A stretch of 64,000 nt of DNA from Mayamaea pseudoterrestris (GCA_027923505.1 BROI01000001.1:2914001-2978000), one strand, 5' to 3'; positions 52,343-64,000 are shown, counted from the first letter of the stretch. Numbers and translations are program-made. Notes: generated by a model not told the origin, from the sequence alone.

Positions 52343-52921
52343 ATGATCATGCGTCTATCCACTCTCTGCATCCTCAGCATGTGCGCGGCGCAAACCCTCG
52401 CATTTGCAGGACGGCATGCTCCATTCGCTGTCGCCTCCCAGCAGCGTTCCACTGTGACCATGAGGGCCATGGATGGAGATGATCAAGGCATCTTGTCCAA
52501 GGCAGGTGATAAGATCCAAGATGGCTTTGACGCGACCAAGGAGAAAGTAAAGGCTGGCTTTGAGAAGACCAAGGATGTCGCTGCGTCGGCCTACGAAAAG
52601 ACGAAGGACTTTGTCACTCCCGATGACGGTGACGTTGATGAAGTCAAGAACAAGGCTAGAAACGCTAAGGACAATGTCGGAGACAAGCTCAACGAGGCGG
52701 GCAACAAAATCCAAGACGGATTCGAAACTGCGAAAGACAAGACCGCATCCGCCTTTGACAGCGCAAAAGACAAGGCTGGCAATGCCAAGGAAAGCGCCGA
52801 GTCTAATTTCGAAAAGTCAAAGCATGAGGCCAAGGACGGCCTTAACAAGGCTGGCGACAAAGCACAGTCTGCCGCAAGAGACACGAAAAACGCCGCCAAG
52901 GACAGCGTGGACAAGTTGTAA
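52343..52921 (+). CDS. LEA (group 3-like) hydrophilic repeat protein, probably plastid-targeted
   Basis: Signal peptide ending TLA-F plus a transit region. K/D/A-rich 11-mer-like repeats (DKIQDGFDATK, NKIQDGFETAK, DKTASAFDSAK). Confidence 0.8.
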   Translation: MIMRLSTLCILSMCAAQTLAFAGRHAPFAVASQQRSTVTMRAMDGDDQGILSKAGDKIQDGFDATKEKVKAGFEKTKDVAASAYEKTKDFVTPDDGDVDEVKNKARNAKDNVGDKLNEAGNKIQDGFETAKDKTASAFDSAKDKAGNAKESAESNFEKSKHEAKDGLNKAGDKAQSAARDTKNAAKDSVDKL

Positions 52922-53052: not shown

Positions 53053-54030
53053 CTATGTCTGGTAGTGATGTTCGTGCGGCTCCAAAACAACGCCATCTTC
53101 AAACACTACTCTTCGAAAGTGAAAGTCTGGAGAGAGCGCGTCCCACCACTTAAACTCGCAAACAGTAGAAACTTTCTTGGCTTGCACGTAAAGCGTATCG
53201 CCCATGTCATTGACTCCGCCTTCCTCAATCATGTAGTCGTAAACCAGTGTTTGGACAAGCTGCTCCATTTCCTCCACCTCCAACACAATTTTGCACACTT
53301 TTTTGTCAATCATGGTTTTCTGGATCTCCGAAACCGTCACGCCTTGACCACCATTCATCTTTTGAACGCAGAAAATGATAAAGTTACGTAGTTCATCAAT
53401 AAATTCGTGGTCAAACTCCAAGTCGCTGTACCAGACACCACCCGTCAACTCTTTGGATGGCACCAAGTCAAACAACATGTATAGCTTTTTGGCTTTGGCA
53501 GTGACTGACTTGACTGGCTTGATGAGGCGTCGCTGTTCGAGTGTTTTGAAGATTTTGTTGAGGGCTTGCTGCTGAATGTTCGTTTGAAGTCGAACGTCTT
53601 TCGTCCAAAGCCCCATGTTACCCGCTCGTTCAATAACGCTGTATACCATTTTGGTATTGCGATCAAGTCCTTCGAATTTGGAGGCTTGCTCGGGTGCGAT
53701 GATTGTGTAGGACAATTCGCCAGTGGAGGGCATGACACTCATGTTCAGTCGATTCTCTTGGGTCAGTGCATTGATAATTGGAACGAGCTGCGGATACAAA
53801 CCTTCGCCGAAGACTTCTTTGAGTTCACCATTTGAAATGCCCAATTTGTATCGCTCGTCCGACAGAGTCTTGATGAAGCGTTCGCGAAGGTCTTGGGCGC
53901 TTTCCGCGGCGGCTGATCCAGTCGTTTGTCCGACCTCTACTTTGACGATGGCATGTCCATTACCGGTAGCTCGACTACGTTTCGCAGCAGGAACAACTGG
54001 TGTCGCAATTGCACGCTTTTTAGTTGCCAT
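53053..54030 (-). CDS. POLR3F: RNA polymerase III subunit RPC6/C34
   Basis: IERAGNMGLWTKD..KTLEQRRLIKPVKSV..KKLYMLFDLVPSKELTGGVWY..EFDHEFI. Confidence 0.93.
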   Translation of the reverse strand: MATKKRAIATPVVPAAKRSRATGNGHAIVKVEVGQTTGSAAAESAQDLRERFIKTLSDERYKLGISNGELKEVFGEGLYPQLVPIINALTQENRLNMSVMPSTGELSYTIIAPEQASKFEGLDRNTKMVYSVIERAGNMGLWTKDVRLQTNIQQQALNKIFKTLEQRRLIKPVKSVTAKAKKLYMLFDLVPSKELTGGVWYSDLEFDHEFIDELRNFIIFCVQKMNGGQGVTVSEIQKTMIDKKVCKIVLEVEEMEQLVQTLVYDYMIEEGGVNDMGDTLYVQAKKVSTVCEFKWWDALSPDFHFRRVVFEDGVVLEPHEHHYQT

Positions 54031-55127: not shown

Positions 55128-56138
55128 ATGGCCAACCTTCGCCGCTGCTTAGCTCCGGCTCTTGTCTCGATGCTCGCATCATCATGCGAGGCTTTCGTGT
55201 CGCTTAACAAGCCTACTATTCGCATGACGCGGGCGTCGTCGTCGTCGTCTCTTTACTCTACGGAAGAAACCGTGGCATTTTCAAAGTACCACGGCTTGGG
55301 AAACGATTTTATTCTCATTGACAATCGTCAGCAATCAGACCCGTCGCTATCACCGCAACAAGCCGCTCATATGTGTCATCGCAACTTTGGAGTTGGCGGC
55401 GATGGCGTCATTTTCGCCTTGAAGCCGCCTTCCGACCAATTTGACGTTGGCATGCGCATTTACAACTCGGATGGTTCAGAACCTGAGATGTGCGGCAATG
55501 GCATTCGTTGCTTAGGACAGTTTTTGAGAGATCTTGATCCGCAGACGAAAGGAACCACGACGACTTACAACATTCATACACTGGCTGGCTTGATTCGCCC
55601 CGTCATGAATGCCGACGATGAAACTATTACTGTTGACATGGGCGAGCCGATTCTATCGGCTGCCAAGGTGCCAACGACGCTTGCGGCGAATGCAAAGGAC
55701 GACTCGGTCGTTGAGCAAGAGTACGAATGTAATGGCAAGACTTGGAAAATATCTGCCGTAAGCATGGGTAATCCGCATGCGATTATTTTCGTGAATGATC
55801 TTGAACACGACTTTGACTTGCACAAGGACGGGCCAGCTTTAGAAAAAGCTGCAGTTTTTCCGGCCAAGACGAATGTAGAGTTTGTACAAGTCGTTTCGCC
55901 AAACCATTTGAAAATGAAGGTATGGGAGCGCGGCGCTGGACCAACGCTGGCTTGCGGAACTGGTGCATGCGCCTTGACGGTGGCTGCCATTCGCGCCGAC
56001 AAAATCCCTCGCGGCAATGGACCAGTGCGAGTGACGCTGCCCGGCGGAGACTTATTCATTGAATGGAAGGAGGAGGACAATCGAGTCTACATGTCGGGGC
56101 CTGCGACGTTTGCGTTTGAAGGCGAGGCGAGAATATAG
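55128..56138 (+). CDS. dapF: Diaminopimelate epimerase, plastid-targeted
   Basis: FSKYHGLGNDF, GVGGDG, EMCGNGIRC, SMGNPH, WERGAGPTLACGTGAC. Presequence ..SSCEA-FVS. Confidence 0.97.
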   Translation: MANLRRCLAPALVSMLASSCEAFVSLNKPTIRMTRASSSSSLYSTEETVAFSKYHGLGNDFILIDNRQQSDPSLSPQQAAHMCHRNFGVGGDGVIFALKPPSDQFDVGMRIYNSDGSEPEMCGNGIRCLGQFLRDLDPQTKGTTTTYNIHTLAGLIRPVMNADDETITVDMGEPILSAAKVPTTLAANAKDDSVVEQEYECNGKTWKISAVSMGNPHAIIFVNDLEHDFDLHKDGPALEKAAVFPAKTNVEFVQVVSPNHLKMKVWERGAGPTLACGTGACALTVAAIRADKIPRGNGPVRVTLPGGDLFIEWKEEDNRVYMSGPATFAFEGEARI

Positions 56139-56621: not shown

Positions 56622-59600
56622 TTACGGGGTGACTGGCTCGTCGACATCGGCGTCCGCCTCTTCGAGATCCAATTCGCCTTCCTTCTTGGCAGCAGCAGCG
56701 CGCTGTTCCGAAGTTCCGACAAAGACTTCATCAAGCTGGTAGCCAACAATGTCCTTGTGAATCAACGCAAGAAGCCATGCGGCGGAACAAACGCCAGTCG
56801 CCTCAAGCATGAGGCATAGACGGATGATCAAGTACACAATTGGATTCGAAAGGAACGCAACGGGGAATGATGAGGCAATGATGCGCCAAGCAAGTGATCC
56901 GACAATGGTTGTAATGACGGCTCCAAGCAATCCAGTGTTAAAAAAGTTTTGAAGCCCGTCGCTAACACCGAAAATGTTGCCATCTCCAACGACCACATTG
57001 AGGGTGGTTATGCGAGCAACAACAAACATGCAGACCGTAACACAAACTTGGCGGCCAATCAAAAAGGCTTGAAGATTGCGGCCAGTAAATGTCAATTGGC
57101 AAGTCTTGTAAGCCATGGCATGGTTCTTCAATTCCTCCTCTGGCAAGTTGACGACGGCAAACAGAGCAATCTGCATACCCTCCATCATACCGACAAAACA
57201 CATGAGTACAAAGAAGACAACAACAGAGACAGCTGATGGAACCCCGGCCCACATGGTAGTCTTCTGCTGGAACAGTGCTCCAAGTGTGACGGCAAACGAC
57301 AAGACCAAAATGACAACCGAAAACAAAACGCGAACCCAGAAAAACGTCTTTTGTACCGGCGAACGAGGAGGCTCGTTTGTCGCAATCGGCTGTCGCGAAA
57401 TCTTGGCGAAGAAGATCTGGACAAGGTAGACGGAATGCAGAAGACCCGAATACTCAATGAAAAGCGAGACATATGTTGTGAAAAGCATGAAGTAATTGTT
57501 GATGAAATCAAGCATGCAGTTGGCGGCGTTGACTTGAGCGGTGAGCTGGCCGAGCATGATGGTCATCAAAATCGTCGCCAATCCGGAGCCGACAAAGATC
57601 TGGAGCATTGCATCCGACAAACCCAGGACTTCGGTTCCAGGCAAGGCTGCAGCGCACATGTTAGTAACAAAGACAACTAACACGACGAGAAATTGTCGAC
57701 CGACGATGAAACGCTCCATGTTGTCTCCTTTGTGCGCAAGCTTGGTGTTCTTCAGGGCTCGTGGATGGCTTTCAGCGTAAAGCTCCTTGTCAATCGGCTG
57801 CAAGCCAACCAAGGCGCCTTGGCCTCCTTCCATCATGGCAAGCCAGCAAATGACGAAGAGCAAGAGGAAAAAGGCAACAAGCGGGTGCGACTGCGATGAG
57901 ATCTTGGTTTGCTCCGTGAAAATGGCAGCCAACACGACCATGACGGAAAACACAAGCAAGCCAAGCGAGTAGGCGTACTTGACAACAGTGACAGTAACAT
58001 CAATGTCCTTGTCGCGGCGGGTAACGGGAGCTTTGGTGTGACGAGGCGCATCCTCGAGGTAAACCTCGTCGGGTTGGAAACCGACCATCAACTTGTTCCA
58101 GCGACCAAGCACCCAGGCGGCAGAGCAAAGGCCACTTGCCTCGAGCAAGAGACACAGACGGATGATTAAGTAAATCATTGGATTCGAAAGGAAGGCAACC
58201 GGGAAGGACGAAGCAATGATACGCCAGGCCAATGAAGCAACAATCGTTGTGATGATAGCTCCAAGCAGGCCCGTGTTGAAGAAAGCCTGGACGCCGTCAC
58301 TCACTCCAAACATGTTTCCCTCGCCAATGACGACGTTCAGCGTTGTGATACGGGCGACAACAAACATGCACACAGTCACACAGATCTGGCGACCAATCAA
58401 GAAGGCTTGCAGGTTCTGGTCACGGAACGTGAGTTCGCAGTTAGTGTAGGCGATGGCATGGTTCTTCAGCTCTTCCTCTGGCATATTCACGACGGCAAAC
58501 AGAGCAATCTGCATGCCTTCCATCATTCCAACGAAGCACATCAGGATGATGAAGACAACAACAGAAACCGCTGGAGGAACGCCGTCCCACATGGTTGTCT
58601 TCTCTTGGAAGAGAGCGCCGAGTGTAACCGCGAAAGCAAATCCGAGGACGAGGCAAGACATGAGGACTCGTGCCCAGAAGAAGATGTTCTGAATGAATGT
58701 GCGAGGCTCTTCCTTGGATTCGATTGGCGTGCCGGTGACCTTGGAGAAGAAGAGCTGTACCAAGTACACTGAATGGACGAGTCCAGTCATCTCGATGAAC
58801 AAGGCAACGTAGGTCGTGAAAAGCATGAAATAGTTGTTGACAAAGTCGAGCATGCAATTGGCGGCATTTACTTGAGCAGTGAGCTGACCAATGTTGATGG
58901 CGATCAAGATCAAAGCGATTCCTGTTCCCAAGAAAATGTCGTTGACAGCCGACGGTAGTCCGAGTACTTGAGCTCCCGTGACGGACGACGCCATCATGTT
59001 GGAGACGAACACAACCAGGACAACCAAGAACTGACGACCAAGAATGAACCGTTCCATATTGTCGCCCTTGTGTGCGAGGGTGGTATTCTTGAGCGCCCGC
59101 GGATGGCTTTCAGCATACAAGGACTTGTCGACAGGCTGAAGACCGACCAAAGCTCCTTGACCTCCTTCCATCATGGCGAGCCAGCAAATTAAGAACCAAA
59201 AAATGAAGAAGGCAGCGATGGCGGGAATTCCCTTGCTGACTGCGCTTGACTGGCCGGTAAAGATTGCCGCCATTACCATGATCAGAGCAAAGGCCAACAG
59301 GCCGAGAGAGTAAAGGAACTTGAAGACTGTAACGAGGCGGTCAATGTCCTTGTCGCGACGGGTTACCGGCTCGGATCCATGCGGTTCGGCGCCTTCAAGA
59401 TGAACCTCGTCGGGCTGATAGTTGACAAGAGGCTTGTGGTAGCGCGCCAAGACCCACGACGCAGAGCACACTCCAGACTTTTCAAGCATCAAGCACAAGC
59501 GAATGATCAAGTAGACAAGCGGGTTGGACAAAAAGGCAACCGGAAACGAGGAAGCGACAATGCGCCAAGCGAGCGACCCGACAATGGTTGTGATAATGGC

Positions 59601-60932
59601 ACCAAGCAACCCTGTGTTGAAGAAGTTCTGCAATCCGTCACTGACTCCAAAGATATTGCCTTGCCCAACCGTCACATTGAGAGTAGTAATGCGGGCAACG
59701 ACAAACATGCAAACGGTGACGCAAATCTGGCGGCCAATCAAAAATGCTTGGAGATTTTGGTCGCGGAAGCAAAGCTGGCAAGTCTTGTGCGCCATGGCAT
59801 GGTTCTTTAGCTCCTCCTCAGGCAAGTTGACAACAGCAAACAAGGCAATCTGCATTCCTTCCATCATGCCGACAAAGCACATGAGCACGAAGAAAACGAC
59901 AACCGAGACGGCCGATGGCACTCCATTCCACATGGTCGTCTTCTCTTGAAACAAGGCAGCCAAGGTAACAGCAAACGCATAGCCCAAGACGGTCAAAGAG
60001 AGCAAGACGCGTCCCCAAAAGAGCAAGTTCATGGCGCCGCTTCGCGGAGGCTCGTTCGACTCGACTGGCTTGCCCGTCAGCTTGGCAAAAAACATTTGAA
60101 CCAGGTAAACCGAGTGCAAGAGACCAGACATTTCAATAAAGAGCGACACGTATGTGGTAAAGAGCATGAAGAAGTTGTTGATGAAATCAAGCATGCAATT
60201 CGCCGCGTTCACTTGCGCCGTGAGCTGTCCGAGCATAATCATGACGAGGATCAAGGCAACGCCCGAGTCAAGAAAGACCTTGGTGACTCCGCTTGGGAGG
60301 CCGAGCACTTCGGCGCCAGCAACTGAGGAAGCCATCATGTTGGAGATAAAGACAACCAAGACGACGAGGAACTGACGGCCAATGATAAAGCGCTCCATAT
60401 TGTCTCCCTTGTGAGCAAGCTGCGTGTTCTTGAGGGAGCGAGGGTGACTCTCCGCGTAAAGCGTTTTGTCGACAGGCTGGAGTCCAACCAAAGCTCCTTG
60501 TCCGCCTTCCATCATGGCCAACCAGCAGACGAGGAAGCAAAAGATGAAAAAGGCAGCGACTGGCGGAATTCCCATCGTCGACGTTCCAACCGTTTGCGAG
60601 CTGAACATGGCCGACAAAACAATGACGAGCGAAAAGACCAAGAGCCCCATCGAGTACAAGTACTTGAGCGACTCAATGCCCGATCCAATCACCGAGTGCG
60701 TTCCCTTGATCGAGTTCTTCTTGTCGCCATCCTTGCCTTCGCCTGGAAAGTGCTCAAGCTTGCCGTCAGCGTCGGCCTGCGGAAACACCTTGCCCTCGTG
60801 CAACACCTCCTCGGAAAGGTCGCCAACGCTCGCCTCGTCGTCGTCGGCACTTCCATGCGCTTTGAAAGGATTGTCCATGCCGAGGGCGGCGGCGTCCTCG
60901 ACGAAAATCATCTTTTCTTGATTCTCCGACAT
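56622..60932 (-). CDS. SIT: Triplicated silicon (silicic acid) transporter: three SIT units in one intronless ORF
   Basis: Three copies of the series EGGQ / GRQ / QxNAANCMLD / EGMQ / GRQ, at periods of 1344 and 1341 nt. ATG at 60932 (MSENQEK). Confidence 0.97.
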   Translation of the reverse strand: MSENQEKMIFVEDAAALGMDNPFKAHGSADDDEASVGDLSEEVLHEGKVFPQADADGKLEHFPGEGKDGDKKNSIKGTHSVIGSGIESLKYLYSMGLLVFSLVIVLSAMFSSQTVGTSTMGIPPVAAFFIFCFLVCWLAMMEGGQGALVGLQPVDKTLYAESHPRSLKNTQLAHKGDNMERFIIGRQFLVVLVVFISNMMASSVAGAEVLGLPSGVTKVFLDSGVALILVMIMLGQLTAQVNAANCMLDFINNFFMLFTTYVSLFIEMSGLLHSVYLVQMFFAKLTGKPVESNEPPRSGAMNLLFWGRVLLSLTVLGYAFAVTLAALFQEKTTMWNGVPSAVSVVVFFVLMCFVGMMEGMQIALFAVVNLPEEELKNHAMAHKTCQLCFRDQNLQAFLIGRQICVTVCMFVVARITTLNVTVGQGNIFGVSDGLQNFFNTGLLGAIITTIVGSLAWRIVASSFPVAFLSNPLVYLIIRLCLMLEKSGVCSASWVLARYHKPLVNYQPDEVHLEGAEPHGSEPVTRRDKDIDRLVTVFKFLYSLGLLAFALIMVMAAIFTGQSSAVSKGIPAIAAFFIFWFLICWLAMMEGGQGALVGLQPVDKSLYAESHPRALKNTTLAHKGDNMERFILGRQFLVVLVVFVSNMMASSVTGAQVLGLPSAVNDIFLGTGIALILIAINIGQLTAQVNAANCMLDFVNNYFMLFTTYVALFIEMTGLVHSVYLVQLFFSKVTGTPIESKEEPRTFIQNIFFWARVLMSCLVLGFAFAVTLGALFQEKTTMWDGVPPAVSVVVFIILMCFVGMMEGMQIALFAVVNMPEEELKNHAIAYTNCELTFRDQNLQAFLIGRQICVTVCMFVVARITTLNVVIGEGNMFGVSDGVQAFFNTGLLGAIITTIVASLAWRIIASSFPVAFLSNPMIYLIIRLCLLLEASGLCSAAWVLGRWNKLMVGFQPDEVYLEDAPRHTKAPVTRRDKDIDVTVTVVKYAYSLGLLVFSVMVVLAAIFTEQTKISSQSHPLVAFFLLLFVICWLAMMEGGQGALVGLQPIDKELYAESHPRALKNTKLAHKGDNMERFIVGRQFLVVLVVFVTNMCAAALPGTEVLGLSDAMLQIFVGSGLATILMTIMLGQLTAQVNAANCMLDFINNYFMLFTTYVSLFIEYSGLLHSVYLVQIFFAKISRQPIATNEPPRSPVQKTFFWVRVLFSVVILVLSFAVTLGALFQQKTTMWAGVPSAVSVVVFFVLMCFVGMMEGMQIALFAVVNLPEEELKNHAMAYKTCQLTFTGRNLQAFLIGRQVCVTVCMFVVARITTLNVVVGDGNIFGVSDGLQNFFNTGLLGAVITTIVGSLAWRIIASSFPVAFLSNPIVYLIIRLCLMLEATGVCSAAWLLALIHKDIVGYQLDEVFVGTSEQRAAAAKKEGELDLEEADADVDEPVTP

Positions 60933-62115: not shown

Positions 62116-62703
62116 TTACGTTTCCTTCTGTAGCTTGCTCAATATATCATGGACCAAATTCTTCATGACTGGTTGGCCTCGACTCGTCTTTTGTTGTAAA
62201 AGTTCTGTTCGCTTTTTACGATGAGCCAGTGCGCGATGCCGCTCCTGTTCCTGCTTCTTTTGTTCCTTCTTGATGCGATCGGCATCTGCCTGCTTCTGTT
62301 CAGCTTTTGTTTTGGTGGATTCCTTGGCATGCTTCTTTGATGTGTCCTTTGTTACATTTGAAACGTTCGCTTCCTGGTCTACCTCCTTGTTGCTGTTATC
62401 TGCCTTGTTGTCCTCTTGTTCGTTGTTGTCTTCTGCTGCTGCTGCCGCCACGACACGTCGTCTCTTGGCTCCAGTCCCTGGTTCATAGCCATGCTTTTGC
62501 ATGACCTTTTTATACTGTCGAAGCTCCTTGGACGTATGTAGACGCTTCTTTTCCTTGCGCTTGCGAAATTCCTGGAGCGCCTTGACGGGGCCAGTCGTTT
62601 TGGTGGCGGAACTGCCTGTCAGCAGCGACGGCATTCTGCGGCGATGGTTGCTGGTGCTATCATTATTCCTGTTAGATGTTGTTGGACGTCGATTGTCGGA
62701 CAT
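62116..62703 (-). CDS. rRNA-processing (Fyv7/CCDC59-like) basic coiled-coil protein
   Basis: Lys/Arg-rich. C-terminal KTSRGQPVMKNLVHDILSKLQ. Confidence 0.7.
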   Translation of the reverse strand: MSDNRRPTTSNRNNDSTSNHRRRMPSLLTGSSATKTTGPVKALQEFRKRKEKKRLHTSKELRQYKKVMQKHGYEPGTGAKRRRVVAAAAAEDNNEQEDNKADNSNKEVDQEANVSNVTKDTSKKHAKESTKTKAEQKQADADRIKKEQKKQEQERHRALAHRKKRTELLQQKTSRGQPVMKNLVHDILSKLQKET

Positions 62704-63029: not shown

Positions 63030-64000
63030 ATGACGGCATCGAGTCCACTGTTCATTCTTTACGGCTCGGCGACTGGCAATGCGGAACACATTGCCAAGGA
63101 TCTTGCCTCGCAAGTTCCCGGATCAATTTGCTGTCCGATGGACGACTTTAAGAAGAAAGCCATGCCTACTTGGGAGACGAAACCTGCAGATGGAAGCAAG
63201 CATGCTGTATTGTTTCTCACGTCTACTACCGGAAATGGCGATGCACCTGAAAATGCAAGTCGCTTCGTTCGATTCTTGAAGCGCAAGACATCATCGCCAA
63301 CTACATTTGAGAATTGCGTCTATGCTGTACTGGCACTGGGAGACTCCAACTATGACAAATTTTGTCAGGCAGGAAAGGACGTAGATCGACGTGCTCACGA
63401 GTTGGGAGGAACGCGCGTTCGGCCATTGGCTTGCGCCGACGAAGGAACTGGGTTGGAGGATGTCGTTGAGCCATGGACGCATTCGATCCTGCAGGACATT
63501 TCAAATGCCCGACTGGGACGCAATATTGTTAATGAGGAAGGCATCAAAGAAATTACGAATGAGGTAAAGGAGAAGGAGGAAGAATTGAAACTTGCGAATG
63601 GCGATGTTAAAAAAGTATCGACTGAGAAAGCTGCTCCTCCGACTTTGCCCGATGCCAGCGCTGCACCTGTTACTCCCGACGCATCAGCAGGAGTCGCGAT
63701 TGTACGATCAATACTGAAACTAGACAACATTGACTCTCCTTTGGAGCCAGTCGACCCCAAACTTTTGCCTCCTCTCACAAGTAAGCTGAGCTCGTGCCAA
63801 CTGGTCCACCATCAGAATGGCGATGATGAATTGGTTACGCATCGAGACCGCAGTGCATCTTTGGCCGAGACCATGTCGTCTGGCAGCAGTGTCACGTTGC
63901 ATTACAATCTACAAAAGCCGTTTGCGTCGCGCGTACTAAAGGCCCGCTACTTGACAAAAACTCCTGTGGAGGCAGCTCAGCAAGCGGCCAGCCTGTCGGT
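63030..64000 (+). CDS. MTRR: Diflavin reductase, methionine synthase reductase-like (5' part; runs off the window and is not in the ORF track)
   Basis: MTASSPLFILYGSATGNAEHIA, STTGNGDAPENA, YAVLALGDSNYDKFC, ADEGTGLEDVVEPW. The frame appears open to the window end. Confidence 0.8.
   Translation, partial: MTASSPLFILYGSATGNAEHIAKDLASQVPGSICCPMDDFKKKAMPTWETKPADGSKHAVLFLTSTTGNGDAPENASRFVRFLKRKTSSPTTFENCVYAVLALGDSNYDKFCQAGKDVDRRAHELGGTRVRPLACADEGTGLEDVVEPWTHSILQDISNARLGRNIVNEEGIKEITNEVKEKEEELKLANGDVKKVSTEKAAPPTLPDASAAPVTPDASAGVAIVRSILKLDNIDSPLEPVDPKLLPPLTSKLSSCQLVHHQNGDDELVTHRDRSASLAETMSSGSSVTLHYNLQKPFASRVLKARYLTKTPVEAAQQAASLS

Follow-up and report, generated by a model that had tools for sequence, protein, structure and literature searches.

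The single silicon transporter (SIT), which has ten transmembrane (TM) segments, binds silicic acid 1:1 and needs both sodium and the glutamines of its GXQ motifs (PMC4912633), and it has been reported to form a tetramer natively (Curnow 2012, cited in excerpts of PMC5129515 and PMC5100055). Genes that carry several SIT units in one frame (multi-SITs) have also been described. According to excerpts of PMC6114903, SaSIT-TRI of Synedra acus subsp. radians (Fragilaria radians, AQN32704.1) and SuSIT1-3 (AXU00142-4) each hold three in-frame units, with CMLD and four GXQ motifs in each unit, and the published junction motifs of such proteins are YQXDXVYL (of the Y/F-QPDEVxL type) and DXDID. The excerpted text of PMC5129515 reports a 30-TM SIT in Pseudo-nitzschia multiseries, places every multi-domain SIT in clade B, counts six duplications or triplications that may have been separate events, and describes five clade B genes whose N-terminus or loop 5 is serine-rich, a feature that we do not treat as defining. 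Durkin et al. 2016 suggested that domain duplication and fusion shorten oligomer assembly (PMC5129515, in excerpt). Parmales carry 20-TM double SITs, their two units described as duplications within Triparma (PMC10328945, in excerpt), and the excerpted passages of PMC10700740 and PMC10888605 hold nothing on multi-SITs.

The window analyzed here, a stretch of 64,000 nucleotides from Mayamaea pseudoterrestris (GCA_027923505.1 BROI01000001.1:2914001-2978000), contains a gene of the published multi-SIT type and adds one member to a described and widespread class. Its open reading frame (ORF) runs on the minus strand from 60932 to 56622, encodes 1436 aa without introns or any N, and has its last codon as the sole stop. 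The features of the gene are as follows:

56622..60932, minus strand: triplicated silicon transporter, single-exon ORF, 1436 aa, about 157 kDa
60666..60932, minus strand: hydrophilic N-terminal extension, aa 1-89, not serine-rich
59397..60665, minus strand: SIT unit 1, aa 90-512 (EGGQ 142, GRQ 185, CMLD 246, EGMQ 358, GRQ 400)
59322..59420, minus strand: junction 1, aa 505-537, YQPDEVHL ... PVTRRDKDID, with DKDID at 59354-59340
58056..59321, minus strand: SIT unit 2, aa 538-959 (EGGQ 589, GRQ 632, CMLD 693, EGMQ 805, GRQ 847)
57981..58079, minus strand: junction 2, aa 952-984, FQPDEVYL ... PVTRRDKDID, with DKDID at 58013-57999
56718..57980, minus strand: SIT unit 3, aa 985-1405 (EGGQ 1035, GRQ 1078, CMLD 1139, EGMQ 1251, GRQ 1293)
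56622..56717, minus strand: short acidic C-terminal tail and stop, poorly conserved, without the RRDKDID linker

The Pfam family PF03842 (Silic_transp) matched three stretches of the protein with 1753 bits in total against a curated cut-off of 26.8, and the own-genome search listed the units separately within one open frame at 573-622 bits each. Unit starts at aa 90, 538 and 985 (window positions 60665, 59321 and 57980) give periods of 448 and 447 aa; head to tail, the units measure 448, 447 and 452 aa with no internal stop, compared with about 436-450 aa for units of the triplicate multi-SIT type. CMLD, EGGQ and EGMQ each occur three times in the protein and GRQ six times, with two EGXQ-GRQ pairs and CMLD in all three units in the order EGGQ, GRQ, CMLD, EGMQ, GRQ. 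A hydropathy scan (window 19, cut-off 1.6) found 28 hydrophobic segments (10+9+9), since units 2 and 3 each have a fifth segment too weak to reach the cut-off. The initial annotation had described one intronless ORF with three full SIT units at a period of about 448 aa, each with all four GXQ motifs and CMLD, and had proposed an HMM check with three full matches expected and a TM prediction. All of this was borne out, the TM count with the one weak segment missed twice.

The two halves of the SIT unit are themselves related (HHalign probability 99.8), and the N-terminal extension ranges from 41 to 304 aa across 63 multi-unit homologs, with low conservation. No solved relative was found by sequence (0 matches at E up to 1) or with a 51-row profile (0 matches at E up to 10); an Atlas search returned SIT clusters only (0.93), with no structure model of the protein. 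Kinship of the half-unit to CNNM/DUF21 was considered and not shown: the E value was 0.068 for one of six halves, CNNM HHalign probabilities of 0.4-2.9 did not exceed those of 20 shuffled controls (at most 1.6 vs 1.2 in the same run), and a literature search pairing silicon transporter with CNNM found no paper.

Compared with the Synedra proteins, the window protein is 66% identical to SaSIT-TRI (931/1406 aa) and 68% identical to SuSIT3 of Synedra ulna subsp. danica (Ulnaria danica), and it shares their three in-frame units, their CMLD and GXQ complement and their YQXDXVYL and DXDID junction motifs. Units A and B of the Synedra genes, however, are near-identical and group by gene, whereas window units 1 and 2 share 77% identity and cluster by position with units of other species, and Synedra has two or three multi-SIT genes where the window assembly has one triple. 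The genome of M. pseudoterrestris holds this triple SIT, one single SIT on contig C17, two singles on contig C18 and one fragment; the matches to the two C18 singles are split as by introns. The multi-domain SITs of clade B, such as P. multiseries 338018 with 30 TM, likewise consist of three concatenated domains (PMC5129515, in excerpt). Serine makes up at most 25% of any 20 aa of the window protein, below the over-30% threshold used for clade B, so that it has no serine-rich stretch, and the maximum is also 25% in SuSIT3 and in the triple of Nitzschia inconspicua. Each window unit matches single 10-TM SITs such as PtSIT1 (PMC4912633) in length and motifs, but the window protein is three such units in tandem with a conserved 33-aa junction. 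A like junction (...TRRDMDID...) is present in the Triparma double SIT P0095.

Searching proteins of 789-2513 aa for homologs yielded 105 matches, of which 46, counting the window protein, have three full units and 17 have two; the other 42 (partial, interrupted or single) were left out of these counts. The triples include those of Seminavis robusta, Nitzschia inconspicua, Fragilaria crotonensis, Ulnaria danica, Corethron and Proboscia alata. The architecture had been called rare rather than unprecedented. With 46 full triples among 105 long homologs it is not rare, and triple SIT chains are indeed already in print (PMC6114903 and PMC5129515, in excerpt). Multiplied SITs had also been ascribed to some pennate diatoms, which is correct as far as it goes, but they are also found in centric and multipolar diatoms and, as doubles, in Parmales.

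Unit trees were built with FastTree (233 units) and IQ-TREE (56 rows), and one-domain proteins with linker-like ends were dropped from them as likely fragments; a few of these, P0159 among them, could be genuine singles whose start resembles a linker. In both trees each window unit grouped with the same-position unit of other triples, and the window protein as a whole groups with the triples of S. robusta and N. inconspicua. Window unit 2 fell within a starred group of nine middle units including Seminavis (97/88), and unit 1 within a group of eleven first units including Seminavis and Nitzschia (93/71, not starred). Because the window units group by position with units of other triples, the triplication was inherited and is common to this and other diatoms. 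A recent triplication within the species was rejected by an AU test against the window units as one clade (p = 2e-54; 26 rows, quick tree, LG+G4). In a smaller quick tree, the first and middle units of Seminavis stood together and the third unit of P0004 stood beside its first, which leaves the deeper order unsettled and makes unit exchange possible. The window units fell among multi-SIT units that papers assign to clade B (Ulnaria, Corethron, Triparma) and apart from the own-genome C18 pair (100/100). By this company the window gene would belong to clade B, a paraphyletic group, in trees built without labelled A-E references.

The units of the window protein end in YQPDEVHL, FQPDEVYL and YQLDEVFV, and strict DXDID occurs at aa 527 and 974 only and is absent from the termini; a looser DADVD lies in the acidic tail at aa 1427, 29 residues after YQ vs 22 at the junctions. 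Among 109 homolog junctions, D.D[IV]D was found at 96 and a looser form at 105, and the spacing from YQ to DXDID was 22 in all 92 in which both patterns matched. Lys or Arg immediately precedes the motif at 102 of the 109, with Arg in 97% of 105 aligned, and the span from GRQ to GRQ across the junction was 229-238 aa in 105 of 105 cases. Across 51 triples, the last 25 linker residues had conservation of 0.75 and 0.73 without gaps, alongside 0.74, 0.73 and 0.75 for whole units by position, 0.57-0.62 for the loop between half-units, 0.45-0.53 for other loops and 0.44 and 0.38 for the tails. By these measures the linker is constrained as strongly as the transporter core, and the arginines ahead of DXDID are conserved to the same degree as the aspartates. 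A cut site would normally have no need for 25 conserved residues of fixed length, so we read the linker as structure: it resembles a folded element more than it does a flexible site for cleavage.

On balance, the gene encodes a triple SIT whose three complete units, each a predicted sodium/silicic-acid symporter, probably remain joined in one 157-kDa membrane chain. Since every unit keeps the transport motifs, the chain would have three transport sites. Lys and Arg are concentrated in the junction and in loops 2, 5 and 7, whereas loops 1, 3, 4, 6, 8 and 9 have few of them. The number of membrane crossings per unit may be ten, the published figure, or eight, which the Lys/Arg pattern would also allow; both numbers are even, so the units would share one orientation, and the linker would lie on the side of the N-terminus, likely the cytosol. 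We propose that the three units would be inserted the same way round with the basic linker on the cytosolic side, that the linker would be a folded element docking one unit onto the next, and that this docking may pre-assemble part of the transporter oligomer, with three transport sites gained per insertion event.

The initial annotation had offered a covalent chain of about 30 TM segments or a polyprotein precursor; these were the right alternatives, although both were already in print (PMC6114903 and PMC5129515, in excerpt). We lean to the covalent triple because the linker is conserved as the core is, its length is almost fixed and phytoplankton are without caspases (PMC8455989, in excerpt), a lack that weakens the published idea of a caspase cut. 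Several points count against a covalent chain. In S. acus, for which double and triple SIT genes are described, westerns detected a band of about 64 kDa but none at 94 or 152 kDa (cited in excerpts of PMC6114903); this is the only published result at the protein level, and it favors cutting. Three tied units also mismatch the tetramer of the single SIT, doubles exist with the same linker, and a conserved linker would also be expected of a cleavage signal.

The western result supports a polyprotein, in which cleavage within both linkers would divide the inserted 157-kDa chain into three ordinary SITs of about 58, 49 and 50 kDa, a reading that we consider a serious but less probable alternative. 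On this reading, the fusion would serve as a fixed 1:1:1 gene-dosage device. The presence of the motif at both window junctions and throughout the homolog junctions counted above is also what a polyprotein would predict, as is the basic residue directly ahead of it. Diatom metacaspases cleave after Arg or Lys (PMC8455989, in excerpt), which makes the conserved RR the better site if cutting occurs; cleavage of metacaspase type after the arginines of T-R-R-D-K-D-I-D would then be likelier than the printed caspase cut at Asp. Conservation of the whole linker and its fixed length, however, argue against a polyprotein. On gels, SITs appear 5-15 kDa lighter than they are, and PtSIT1 of full length can migrate at 30 kDa (PMC4912633), so the 64-kDa band is a poor fit to pieces of 49-58 kDa and gel size is a weak guide. 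In addition, the motif lies about 10 residues ahead of the first helix, and a similar stretch stands there uncut in unit 1.

The units of an uncut chain might instead be unequal, with one or two transporting and the rest acting as scaffold, sensor or trafficking aid. Position-specific identities are kept across lineages and not homogenised, and clade B SITs have been suggested for high silicic acid or inner membranes (PMC5129515, in excerpt), both of which would suit such a division of labor. We consider it improbable, as every known transport motif is present in all three units and mean conservation is alike by position.

The integrity of the gene was assessed from the divergence of its units and from public runs. 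Protein identity between units is 71-77% and DNA identity 67-69%, the longest exact DNA run common to the units is 26 nt, and between-unit pS is 0.76-0.81 (saturated) with pN of 0.16-0.19; low pN with saturated pS shows strong purifying selection on all three units. Because the units are 67-69% identical in DNA and silent sites are saturated, their duplication is old and is not an assembly collapse, which is further excluded by the single occurrence of the junction-1 DNA in the genome. Five public runs from two studies contain 85-88% of sampled words, and four of them (X1-X4), among which the source of the assembly may be, were compared by contigs; none of the runs listed is recorded as RNA, and X2 and X3 are of no recorded kind. 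Junction 1 was bridged by single contigs in X1, X3 and X4 and by two overlapping contigs in X2, junction 2 was covered by overlapping contig pieces, and no joints were listed at the unit junctions in the contigs of X1-X4. The collapse of three separate genes, which the initial annotation had named as refuting its claim, is therefore contradicted by both the divergence and the contigs. The X2 and X3 contigs span the ORF and thin out beside it, which we do not count as evidence of transcription. X2 also has a loose end at 59325, where unit 2 starts; its sequence does not occur in the window and aligns to contig C9, with a single mismatch, at a short inverted repeat. It was seen in one run only and is read as a library chimera.

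Among the single-letter ORF differences listed, 26 of 29 were silent and none gave a stop; the listing leaves out 19 weaker rows over the whole stretch. One larger difference affects unit 1:

60399..60417, no strand assigned: 19-nt tandem duplication, in the contigs of X1 and X4, from two studies; absent in X2 and X3

The duplication would cause a frameshift near codon 178 followed by a stop 49 codons on, and is possibly a null allele. As contigs keep a single path at a heterozygous site, a second allele, a strain difference or a shared error would all fit it. The frameshifted allele counts against the covalent-chain explanation and qualifies the earlier statement that none of the units looks degraded, which holds for the motifs (all kept in 3/3 units) but not for unit 1 in two of four runs. 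If confirmed, a null allele would offer a natural comparison to the intact gene. That the gene is three genes joined in assembly, or a pseudogene, is very hard to credit: the frameshifting duplication in two studies speaks for it, but that duplication is missing from X2 and X3, the units are too divergent for collapse, the junctions are covered without joints, and the same junctions stand in 45 other full triples from independent assemblies and transcriptomes.

The junction also bears on the origin of the family. YQPDxVxL, 22 residues and then an R-preceded DxDID are found at about nine in ten junctions, in pennates both raphid and araphid, in centrics and in Triparma. Because so wide a range of groups has this junction in common, it is possible, although doubtful, that all diatom and parmalean multi-SITs derive from one ancient fusion, not from six or more separate ones, and that the linker is a folded, oligomer-building latch. 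The unit trees suggest separate events, which later unit swapping and homogenisation would account for under a single fusion, and a literature search with little coverage of subscription journals found no paper arguing a single origin of multi-SITs. If a single ancient fusion were true, the window gene would be well suited to yielding the first structure of a SIT. Whether multi-SITs stay joined or are cut matters for the oligomeric state of SITs and for the way in which diatoms adjust their uptake of silicon.

Within every unit of the triple SIT (window 56622-60932), the distribution of Lys and Arg was alike in the two halves, with loops 2 and 7 being basic and loops 1 and 6 poor in these residues. 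Such a repeated pattern is easier to square with halves that run parallel than with the inverted 5+5 topology in the literature. There are also weak, unconfirmed sequence hints that the half-units resemble CNNM/DUF21.

Two CNNM-domain genes and further SIT genes lie elsewhere in the Mayamaea pseudoterrestris genome (G000):

C18, 390500-400499: two adjacent single-unit SITs (L011), N-terminal matches interrupted, CHCMLD
C17, 10518-11816: divergent single-unit SIT (L012), long branch in the tree
C10, 438636-439145: CNNM-domain gene (L013)
C8, 798523-799032: CNNM-domain gene (L014)

The CNNM-domain genes matched with equal score and equal length on separate contigs, which points either to a recent duplication or to two haplotypes left uncollapsed in the assembly. 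A degraded SIT fragment lies downstream of the L011 pair. In L012, CMLD, EGGQ and EGMQ are replaced by SMLD, EGGL and DGLQ, and for this reason transport may be altered or lost.

The triple SIT is flanked by four housekeeping genes, assigned by Pfam:

53053-54030, minus strand: RNA polymerase III Rpc34
55128-56138, plus strand: diaminopimelate epimerase
62116-62703, minus strand: rRNA-processing family protein
63030-64000, plus strand: flavodoxin-domain protein

Pfam revealed no silica-related cluster among its neighbours within the window. Separately, positions 52343-52921 (plus strand) encode a 192-aa protein with K/A/D-rich repeats that appears secreted or plastid-targeted; by eye we take it to be LEA-like, and Pfam gave only a sub-threshold apolipoprotein match.

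Contigs from two of four public sequencing runs compared (X1 and X4, from two studies) carry a tandem duplication of the 19 nt at window 60399-60417, which is not present in X2 and X3 contigs. The duplication would be predicted to cut off the protein in unit 1, and is possibly a null allele of this genome's sole triple SIT.

In unit trees, single SITs of Fistulifera and Amphora (P0172, P0182, P0201, P0217 and others) nest among the third units of triples, and further single SITs nest among first units. Given these placements, some single SITs may be triples that lost units.
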